A stretch of DNA of 64,000 nt from a virus: the IMG/VR virus record IMGVR_UViG_3300028653_000010; one strand, written 5' to 3'. Positions within the stretch are counted from its first letter, which is position 1. Each line of letters opens with the position of its first letter. The notes under the pieces are model-generated. The model was given only the letters and a program-made list of their open reading frames with translations, had not been told where the DNA came from and did no database searches. Positions 44,964 through 46,739 of this stretch are shown here, in pieces. The position numbers and the translations under genes were made by a program.

Positions 44964-46580
44964 TCAGAGTTCAACTTGATTGATGATGTCTACCCACTGG
45001 TTCTTGCCGGAACCAGTGACAAAATCACTGATCATGCTGAAAACCTGATCAGAGAACCCACCGATACCAAAAGTATCAGATCGGCTTACAACCTGATTCG
45101 TGTTGTGAGGTGCGAGATCCAAGCAGACCAACTTGGCATTGGGGTTCCTACACTTCAGTAAGTCCCATTGCCCTTGCATTTGAGTCGCCCCTGTGATCCC
45201 ATGATTACCAGTCCAAGACTCGTAATCCGAGACGAAGATGACCACGTCAACCTTGGCGGCCTCTGCATTGAGCAAAGCCAAAGGTTTAGCACAATCAGTT
45301 GAACCACCACCAACGGAGGCTAAGATCTTGGTATTCTGCATGACACTGTTGCCAGCATGCACCTTGACCGGGACTACTCGACCCTCGAAGGCGATGAGTC
45401 TAGCCCGCGGGTTCCTTCTGAGGATGGACGAACCAATCAACGAACCCACATCGATGCTCATGACCTTTGTAGTGGAACCCTTTCGAGAACCAGTTACAGG
45501 GCTTGTGGACATCGACCCAGACACGTCGACACAGATGACTACGTTCTGCCCATCGAAGGCAGGAACGTTCATTGTAGCTAGTTCAAGAGCTTCCTCAAGA
45601 GCTACAATGATCTTGTTCGGCATCTGTTCAAAGTCGTCATCATTGGGCTTTGAACCACGGAAGGTGATGCTCCGATCCGTAACCGCCTTGTAGGTCATCA
45701 TGATCTGGTATGGAAAGACGTGAGCCTTTTCGATCAGATCCTTGTTATGTAGTTTGGCTGCAATCAAGTTGACCATCTCAGGGTCCGCAAGAACTCCGTG
45801 ACGAGCGAACGTATTGAGATTCTTGAAGGTCTGAGGCCAAGTTGCCTTGGCGGCTACCGCCTTCCAATCATCAAGACTCAACTTAAGTCCCAATAGCATC
45901 TCGAAGGGTGCATTAGGAACCTCACCCACCGGGGACACCCGGAAGGCTTCATAAGCCGCTACTAGCGCCGGGAGAGACTCAGCCGTAACGAAGTCCTCAC
46001 CGTCGAAGAAACCCTTATCCTTGCCCGCCAGGTGAGCATAGAGAGCAGACCTGGTCCTAGACGTCGGGCGCACCCGAGCCACCTTCACCACGTCACCCAA
46101 GGTCGGGTTGTTACCGACCGAGTTGAAGAATATTTGGTCGTCAGTCCTAGAGTCGAACCACTGGGCAATGACCTTTCGCAGCCGGTGCGAGGAAGCGTTC
46201 CTCTTACCAAACTTCCCAGACCGAATGATCTGAGCAAAGTTGCGCAACATCTTACCGTTGCTGACTACGCGCGGGAAGACCTTCACGCAGAGCTCAGGGT
46301 TACGAACAGCTAAGTTGGCCAGGAGGGCCGCCGGCATGTCCTTCATGTACCCAGTCGTATGGGCATAAACCGCTAGCTTAGCCACGAACTCAGGATCAGA
46401 CTTCCCGACTAGGTCGAGAACCTGCTCTGCCTGTGACTCAGCAGTTGTATAGAAGGTACTGTTAAAACAACCAGTTACAGCTAGTTGTGCCAGGGCATTC
46501 TCCGGCGCCATAGCATACGCATCCCCACCAGCATAATTGCTCGCATTCGGGTTCAAACCGACGATATTATTCTTGGCCAC
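44964..46580 (-). CDS. rsr: Ro60/TROVE RNA-binding protein
   Basis: LAQLAVTGCFNSTFY, YMKDMPA, KMLRNF, NLNTFARHGV, VFPYQ, vWA DVSGSM; GGAGG before GTG 46580. Confidence 0.95.
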   Translation of the reverse strand: MAKNNIVGLNPNASNYAGGDAYAMAPENALAQLAVTGCFNSTFYTTAESQAEQVLDLVGKSDPEFVAKLAVYAHTTGYMKDMPAALLANLAVRNPELCVKVFPRVVSNGKMLRNFAQIIRSGKFGKRNASSHRLRKVIAQWFDSRTDDQIFFNSVGNNPTLGDVVKVARVRPTSRTRSALYAHLAGKDKGFFDGEDFVTAESLPALVAAYEAFRVSPVGEVPNAPFEMLLGLKLSLDDWKAVAAKATWPQTFKNLNTFARHGVLADPEMVNLIAAKLHNKDLIEKAHVFPYQIMMTYKAVTDRSITFRGSKPNDDDFEQMPNKIIVALEEALELATMNVPAFDGQNVVICVDVSGSMSTSPVTGSRKGSTTKVMSIDVGSLIGSSILRRNPRARLIAFEGRVVPVKVHAGNSVMQNTKILASVGGGSTDCAKPLALLNAEAAKVDVVIFVSDYESWTGNHGITGATQMQGQWDLLKCRNPNAKLVCLDLAPHNTNQVVSRSDTFGIGGFSDQVFSMISDFVTGSGKNQWVDIINQVEL

Positions 46581-46598
46581 GGTGGCCTCCATTTCTAG

Positions 46599-46625
46599 CA
46601 TTCCAGTCCTAACGGACTGGACAAG
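46599..46625 (-). promoter_or_regulatory. Permuted Y-RNA-like Ro60 site in the 5' UTR of the Ro60 gene
   Basis: CUUG-UCCAGUCC-GUUA-GGACUGGA-AUG, 8 nt before the SD. Confidence 0.7.
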
Positions 46626-46739
46626 TTGCCCCTCGATATGAGGAACTCACCTATCTACACCAGCTAGTTTTAATCTTCAAGTGAAATCGACATGAAGTCT
46701 CTGAGGGGACTTCATGTCCCCTTGGTGTAGTGACAATAC

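Follow-up and report, generated by a model that had tools for sequence, protein, structure and literature searches.

How the level of the RNA-binding protein Ro60 is set relative to its Y RNA partners is, to our knowledge, not known in any organism, and the question is raised anew by the window analysed here, a 64,000-nt stretch of viral DNA (IMG/VR record IMGVR_UViG_3300028653_000010) that is part of a very large phage-like genome and carries on its minus strand 39 tRNA genes, a transfer-messenger RNA and a Ro60 gene. The mRNA leader of this gene holds a small hairpin (HP2) whose flanking bases are those of the terminal "handle" of the phage's own Y RNAs, with the strands swapped. This leader element is a real, conserved and previously undescribed motif specific to phage Ro60 genes, and we document below its structure, position, uniqueness, conservation and covariation, and the identity of its flanks with the Y RNA junction. 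To the functional reading that we favour, namely that HP2 is an operator mimicking the Y RNA handle and serving autogenous translational control of Ro60, we give an even chance.

The gene is a genuine Ro60, as its open reading frame (ORF; 44964-46601, minus strand) combines a TROVE domain, the HEAT-repeat ring of these proteins, with a C-terminal Ro60-type vWA domain, both exceeding the Pfam cut-offs (vWA_Ro60, 6.6e-16, 59 bits; TROVE, 1.7e-6, 28 bits). A homologue search found an identical protein on record in a 443-kb contig and a graded series of homologues from 90% down to 45% identity, thousands of which carry the name 60 kDa SS-A/Ro. The best named relative is the TROVE protein of Myxococcus phage Mx1 (41% protein identity), and a megablast of the Ro60 locus against 50,697 phage records gave no match. 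From 5' to 3', leader and gene are composed as follows:

46656-46661, minus strand: GGTGTA, promoter-like motif, probable start marker of the Ro60 leader
46628-46646, minus strand: HP1, 7-bp hairpin GUUCCUC-AUAUC-GAGGGGC, in the minimum free energy (MFE) and centroid folds, 2 nt (AA) before CUUG
46622-46625, minus strand: CUUG, 5' flank of HP2, counterpart of the CUUG ahead of the 3' strand in a Y RNA terminal stem
46602-46621, minus strand: HP2, permuted Y-handle helix, an 8-bp stem of UCCAGUCC (46621-46614) and GGACUGGA (46609-46602) with the tetraloop GUUA (46613-46610)
46598-46601, minus strand: AUGC, 3' flank of HP2, counterpart of the AUG[C/A] behind the 5' strand in a Y RNA terminal stem
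46586-46590, minus strand: GGAGG, Shine-Dalgarno (SD) sequence of Ro60, 5 nt (CCACC) before the GTG at 46580
44964-46580, minus strand: Ro60 coding sequence (TROVE and vWA, Pfam), from the probable GTG start

The arrangement CUUG-stem-GUUA-stem-AUG between GGTGTA and GGAGG had been given in a preliminary description of the window, and it is accurate to the base when read on the minus strand: the stem of HP2 is perfect over its 8 bp, 8 nt separate the stem-adjacent AUG from the SD, UAGAAAU lies between the flanking AUGC and GGAGG, and the GUG start of Ro60 occupies 46580-46578. Both HP1 and HP2 are predicted in the MFE and centroid structures (RNAfold), and the leader folds more stably than its shuffles (z-scores of -3.5 and -4.0). 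HP2 thus lies where an autogenous operator is expected, i.e., in the gene's own mRNA leader and next to the ribosome-binding site, and in 10 phage loci the distance from hairpin to SD is 2-11 nt, or the SD is within the hairpin (the locus L022 being the exception). An MFE extension of HP1 in the window (ACUUGU pairing with AUAGGU) was treated as a chance pairing because it is not kept in relatives, and a terminator role of the leader hairpin was ruled out because no U-run follows the stem.

The Y RNAs with which HP2 is compared are six Y RNA-like genes found by scanning the window for stem-ATG...CTTG-stem:

35886-35999, minus strand: 10-bp terminal stem, AUGC / CUUG (junction scan)
28097-28172, minus strand: 76 nt, 11-bp stem, AUGC / CUUG (junction scan)
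27678-27826, minus strand: 9-bp stem, AUGC / CUUG (junction scan)
26689-26834, minus strand: 8-bp stem, AUGA / CUUG (junction scan)
22602-22729, minus strand: GCGGAGA-AUGC ... CUUG-UCUCCGC (full-length Rfam YrlA match)
17970-18075, minus strand: AGGGAGA-AUGC ... CUUG-UCUCCCU (junction scan)

All six lie inside the tRNA array, on the strand of Ro60 and 10-28 kb from it. Each has a terminal stem of 7-11 bp, with AUG[C/A] after its 5' strand and CUUG before its 3' strand; the stems differ in sequence, and they always close with ...(G)A-AUG[C/A] and resume with CUUG-U(C).... The gene at 22602-22729 matches Rfam YrlA (RF02553) end to end (59.3 bits, E 6.5e-11, the gathering score of 69 not being reached), and the other five share only the handle with this family. 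In the Rfam consensus (gaAUGCu...AcUuGuc), AUGCu and AcUuG are, according to the alignment, the two sides of an internal loop beside the terminal stem, and the same handle recurs in the Y RNAs of Mx1 (there with UUUG) and of three related phage contigs (G001, G003 and G004). The 76-nt mini Y RNA (28097-28172, minus strand) consists of the 11-bp handle and a short top part only, which indicates that the handle serves as a free-standing module. In the handle, the 5'-strand motif GNCGAAN0-1G (stem end plus A(U)G) is the probable Rsr/Ro60 contact site (Chen et al., 2014, PMC4201824), and the 5' strand is what Ro60 mainly reads (Wang et al., 2018, bioRxiv 312249).

Topologically, the leader hairpin is a true circular permutation of this handle. 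CUUG enters the helix and AUG leaves it in both, and the junction geometry is the same because CUUG-arm-loop-arm-AUGC matches the entry (CUUG-stem) and exit (stem-AUG) strands of the Y RNA; the distal end is a loop in the leader vs. free termini in the Y RNA. The scan re-found all six Y RNAs of the preliminary description, and its statement that their AUG/CUUG junction returns in the leader with the strands swapped and joined by a tetraloop holds. Within the window, the leader even retains the GA/UC closing pairs of the Y RNAs (GGA-AUGC / CUUG-UCC).

Upstream DNA of Ro60 homologues was taken from metagenome, IMG/VR and GenBank phage loci, and ~40 closer homologues (P0002-P0045) provided N-termini only, as indirect evidence. 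The motif YUUG-stem-loop-stem-AUG (Y being C or U) stands upstream of Ro60 in 8/8 clade relatives with upstream DNA (41-79% protein identity), in most of which the hairpin is fused to the SD as stem-AUGGAGG:

L022, 79% Ro60 identity: CTTG TCCGGTCC GTTA GGACTGGA ATGC, 456 nt upstream of Ro60, before an inserted ORF
L023, 74% Ro60 identity: CTTG TCCGGTCC ACTA GGACTGGA ATGGAGG-N5-ATG
L105, 59% Ro60 identity: TTTG GTCCGTCC CGTCA GGGCGGAC ATGGAGG
L103, 56% Ro60 identity: CTTG TTCCAC TTCG GTGGAA ATGGAGA
L104, 50% Ro60 identity: TTTG GCCC ATAAC GGGC ATGGAGG
L135, 49% Ro60 identity: CTTG GCGGC TTCG GCCGC ATGGAGG, plus a second copy upstream
L030, 47% Ro60 identity: TTTG TCCGCGT AGCAGAAA ACGTGGA ATG AAA ATGGAGG
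Mx1, 41% Ro60 identity: TTTG TCTC TTCG GAGA ATACC ATG

Counting the window, YUUG is present in 9/9 clade leaders and AUG in eight of them (AUA in Mx1). The stem positions form canonical pairs in 50 of 50 cases, a count that holds partly by construction since pairing was required to find the hairpins, the independent support being the low background rate given below; double compensatory changes are seen at all four pairs nearest the junction, and the observed pairing was reached by 0/20,000 shuffles. These changes were counted by script on a junction-anchored table, MAFFT having lost the register between hairpins of unequal stem length. Identity across the leaders is 88% in the flanks and 47% in the stems, and the loops are unrelated, so that the element appears to match the pattern of a Y handle, i.e., flanks kept, stems paired but drifting and loops free. 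The sequence GAAUG, core of the GNCGAAN0-1G motif, is kept in the leaders of the window, L022, L023 and L030 only.

The remainder of the leader is conserved as well. GGTGTA lies 33-54 nt upstream of YUUG in the window, L022, L023, L105, L104 and L135, and a counterpart of HP1 precedes YUUG in L022, L023, L103, L105, L104, L135, L055 and L107, with a gap of 0-5 nt in all loci but L135; HP1 possibly takes the place of the second helix (S2) in the Y RNA handle. The last two of these loci (L055 and L107, 45-46% identity, phage loci with tRNA arrays) carry the variant (U/G)UUG-UCUCC-loop-GGAGA-AUG, whose 3' arm contains the SD as in Mx1. Four leaders (window, L030, P0006 and P0012) have an insertion of 6-9 nt that parts the hairpin from the SD; AUG remains at the stem end in all four, and the SD-adjacent AUG is gone in two. 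Two further arrangements were noticed among the phage loci. L135 (2380-2431) has tandem copies of the motif, TTTG GCCC ACAC GGGC ATGC followed by CTTG GCGGC TTCG GCCGC ATGGAGG. At L123:2415-2450 and L145:2402-2440 (phage Ro60, 40% identity), the 3' arm of a hairpin continues into CGAAUGC or GGAAUGA just before the SD, i.e., the 5'-strand half of the Y motif is present and the CUUG flank is missing (L145 has a UUUG offset by 1 nt).

The pattern [CT]TTG-stem-loop-stem-ATG (stem of at least 5 bp, loop of 3-8 nt) occurs exactly once on both strands of the 64-kb window, where first-order Markov simulations give 1.0 matches expected per window for stems of at least 5 bp and 0.04 for stems of at least 8 bp. 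Only 1 of the 17 sites in the window with GGAGG plus a start codon has the AU-GGAGG context, and in 1.2 Mb of flanking DNA the background of the relaxed motif is 0.009 per 160 nt, a value inflated by genuine junctions of tandem Y RNAs. The complete relative G004 (IMGVR_UViG_3300010429_000387, 398 kb) has eight other matches to the pattern, none of which stands before an SD and start codon; only the copy at Ro60 does. Near position 211020 (plus strand) and far from Ro60, the same genome has a 14-bp hairpin flanked by CTTG and ATGC (CTGCGTATGCAAGG GATCG CCTTGCATACGTGG). A search of IMG/VR for the exact hairpin pattern gave no match.

These observations suggest the following circuit. The ~70-nt 5' leader of the Ro60 mRNA would hold HP2 as a cis-acting operator, its base flanked by YUUG (5') and AUG (3'), and would copy in circularly permuted form the handle found in the YrlA-type Y RNAs of the same phage, whose helix varies and whose internal-loop junction is AUG[C/A]/CUUG. 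The tetraloop takes the position of the free ends of a Y RNA, and the open side leads straight into the SD. Free Ro60 would bind the leader as it would a Y RNA handle, and would thereby block access of the 30S subunit to an SD that is 2-11 nt away or, in Mx1-type leaders, within the 3' arm. Abundant Y RNAs, with their full GA-AUG/CUUG-UC consensus, would out-compete this weaker operator and Ro60 synthesis would resume, so that Ro60 would stay matched to its Y RNA partners. We take an autogenous operator to be the simplest reading because the hairpin lies in the region occupied by the 30S subunit and its conserved bases equal those of the Y handle; Ro60 binding, the sign of the effect and the competition by Y RNAs are what we infer. 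That the Ro60 of a giant, tRNA-rich phage clade controls its own translation through a permuted Y handle, in competition with 6-10 phage Y RNAs, seems possible, its chances falling just short of even, and it is speculative that the Ro60 level is coupled to the induction of the tRNA/Y RNA operon. The autoregulation proposed in the preliminary description is thus partly supported: of the outcomes that it named as contrary and that can be computed, neither a lack of conservation nor a true start at 46601 was found. In the literature we found no report of Ro60 autoregulation and no paper describing the leader element.

Several observations weigh against an operator that mimics the Y handle. Leader and Y RNAs have just seven flank nucleotides in common. 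The GA/UC closing pairs, which belong to the published GNCGAAN0-1G motif and hardly vary among the Y RNAs of the clade, are kept in only 5/9 leaders, being replaced by AC/GU, GC/GC or AA/UU in L105, L104, L135 and L103, where base-specific contacts to the 5' strand would thus be weakened. That these pairs are degenerate in half of the leaders is compatible with an operator tuned below the strength of the true ligand, and it tells equally against mimicry. The Y RNAs of G003 and G004 have CUUG and their leaders UUUG; the idea that C or U in YUUG tracks each phage's Y RNAs fits Mx1 and the window, fails in these two genomes and was rejected. In L022, the hairpin (1052-1079) is parted from Ro60 by a 153-aa Cys-rich ORF (1084-1545, plus strand; CxxC, CANCH, HNH-like; no match in a Pfam search) that follows directly after its AUGC, and Ro60 has there a new SD and a new N-terminus. 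Among 75 bacterial chromosomal rsr leaders there was a single match, within coding sequence and consistent with chance, so that the element is not a general feature of Ro60. The scan upstream of rsr genes that the preliminary description had proposed was passed in the phage clade, and the element is confined to phages. A stable hairpin next to the SD could also act without any protein.

This last point leads to the alternative that survives best, a leader module independent of Ro60, in which HP1 and HP2 would set mRNA stability or basal translation (e.g., through protection from 5'-end-dependent decay, as a ribosome standby site or by SD occlusion) and the likeness of the flanks to the Y junction would be coincidental. 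Hairpins near the 5' end or adjacent to the SD are common regulators, which counts for such a module, as do the four of nine leaders in which the GA/UC closing pairs are missing and the 3' arm of Mx1, L055 and L107, which is the SD itself (GGAGA) paired with UCUC(C) and resembles an ordinary anti-SD hairpin. We nevertheless consider it rather unlikely: it leaves unexplained that 4+3 flank nucleotides stay at their high identity amid drifting stems and loops, the identity of these flanks with the Y RNA junction has a probability of ~1e-4 by chance for seven fixed positions, and the motif is found at Ro60 and is absent from other SD sites in the window and in G004.

An improbable alternative is that the leader, or a processed fragment with HP1 and HP2, is a minimal Ro60 ligand or decoy resembling YrlB or the Yrl1/Yrl2 RNAs of Thermus phage phiLo, i.e., part of a ribonucleoprotein rather than a translational control element, which may descend from the junction of two tandem Y RNA genes. 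In its favour, phiLo Yrl1/Yrl2 are encoded upstream of the Ro60 gene and bind Ro60 in electrophoretic mobility shift assays (EMSA; PMC12135203), bacterial tandem Y RNAs form hairpins (CUUG-UCGCC-spacer-GGCGA-AUGC) that provide a route of origin, and a mini Y RNA of 76 nt exists in the window itself. However, the stem-AUGGAGG fusion joins hairpin and SD without a terminator or a visible processing signal in between, and release of a fragment would strip the mRNA of its 5' end. Nor does the leader have the make-up of a whole Y RNA: where a Y RNA has a terminal stem of its 5' and 3' ends that carries GNCGAAN0-1G, the leader has a loop-closed helix with permuted strands and no free 5'/3' stem. It contains no tRNA-like effector module (T and D arms), the region 46540-46760 gave no YrlA or tRNA match even at E<=10, and an Rfam search of the leader returned no family.

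The third alternative takes the stem-adjacent AUG at 46601 for the true start and the hairpin simply for part of the initiation region of a 545-aa Ro60. In its favour, the window, L023, L105, L103 and L135 have this AUG in the Ro60 frame, gene calls often begin there (proteins MLEMEA... or MEAIM...) and a weak AGGA lies within the loop and 3' arm. It is very improbable all the same: L104 and L030 have the AUG in another frame, a canonical GGAGG-N5/6-ATG/GTG is kept further downstream, the alternation of GTG and ATG at the 46580 position is typical of a start codon, and the residues ahead of that position are unconserved. The distance from the stem-adjacent AUG to the start is 13 nt in L104, where the frame of that AUG reaches a TAG after 6 codons, and 19 nt in L030. 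The unit of SD, N5/6 and start is itself conserved, and the AUG at 46601 is therefore an RNA motif and not the initiation codon of Ro60. The likely start is GTG 46580, which aligns with the ATG start of relatives behind their GGAGG; homologues have V (GTG) at this position in over-extended gene calls and M (ATG) where it is called as the start, and the 545-aa ORF arises from picking the first in-frame ATG.

The proposed operator has well-known parallels. Autogenous operators that mimic the primary RNA ligand of their protein include Escherichia coli thrS (anticodon arm of tRNA-Thr) and the leaders of the ribosomal proteins L1, S8, S15 and L20 (rRNA sites). Like the leader element, these lie in the gene's own 5' leader, at or overlapping the SD, and copy a sequence and secondary-structure determinant of the cognate RNA; they are also expected to be weaker than the true ligand, as we propose for the Ro60 leader, so that repression would begin only once the ligand is saturated. 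Unlike them, the Ro60 mimic is circularly permuted, its helix being closed at the side where the Y RNA has its ends, and its binding and repression are proposals. Among phages, the coat protein hairpins of MS2 and PP7 and the RegA and gp43 operators of T4 are repressor operators in which, as would be the case here, a phage-encoded RNA-binding protein binds a hairpin at the ribosome-binding site. There, recognition is through bases of loops and bulges, whereas the phage Ro60 leader has a free loop and its conserved bases at the open stem base.

The nearest published case is that of phiLo, whose Ro60 (phiRo60) binds in EMSA the small hairpin-containing Yrl1/Yrl2 RNAs encoded just upstream (NAR 2025, PMC12135203). 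The published account treats these as free Y-like RNAs (5'-3' stem, CGAA bulge) and not as an mRNA operator, and the phiLo Ro60 leader has a different hairpin, without YUUG/AUG flanks. With YrlA/YrlB (RF02553; PMC4201824) the leader element has in common a helix of free sequence that ends in an AUG[C/A] / CUUG junction; unlike them it lies in an mRNA, with reversed strand connectivity and neither a tRNA-like module nor free 5'/3' ends.

Permuted hairpins of a related kind were seen at bacterial rsr loci, where tandem Y RNAs yield CUUG-UCGCC, a 6-12 nt spacer and GGCGA-AUGC, formed across the boundary of neighbouring Y RNAs from the 3' end of the first and the 5' end of the second (L048, ~1800 nt past the rsr start, L207, L088, L035, L038, L031 and L108, with upstream copies in L237, L202, L249 and L081). 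The phage leader hairpin may have evolved from such a tandem-Y junction, and these hairpins possibly pose a misfolding or processing issue for Y RNA precursors.

On its upstream side, Ro60 faces a divergent ADP-ribosylglycohydrolase gene (46740-47660, plus strand), in front of which lies a further copy of the promoter-like motif:

46724-46729, plus strand: second copy of GGTGTA, ahead of the ADP-ribosylglycohydrolase gene

GGTGTA occurs 56 times in the window vs. 31 expected, often behind a pyrimidine tract (cttccttGGTGTA), is found also ahead of tRNA genes (e.g., 47765 and 21944) and is kept in relatives; from this distribution it is probably a phage-specific promoter element. Exactly between the divergent motifs lies an 11-bp inverted repeat (GACATGAAGTC...GACTTCATGTC, 46689-46718), terminator-like on the minus strand and not conserved in L023, a possible insulator or a possible operator bound by a DNA-binding protein. 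A tRNA with a CUA anticodon (amber-suppressor type, Pyl according to ARAGORN; 47661-47733, minus strand) adjoins a PTH2-like gene (47922-48266).

Views on what bacterial or phage Ro60 recognises in a Y RNA rest mainly on a single frog co-crystal and on sequence motifs. A conserved, co-varying natural mimic of ~27 nt on the Ro60 mRNA bears both on this recognition and on the setting of Ro60 levels, and it adds a new cis-regulatory RNA motif to the annotation of giant-phage genomes. Should Ro60 not bind it, the element would still be a conserved, undescribed leader motif, of modest interest. If the proposed control is real, it would have no described precedent as an autoregulatory circuit of any Ro60, would place Ro60 with those RNA-binding proteins whose level is balanced against that of their RNA partners, and would provide a natural experiment defining the minimal Ro60 recognition element as any helix with a CUUG/AUG junction.

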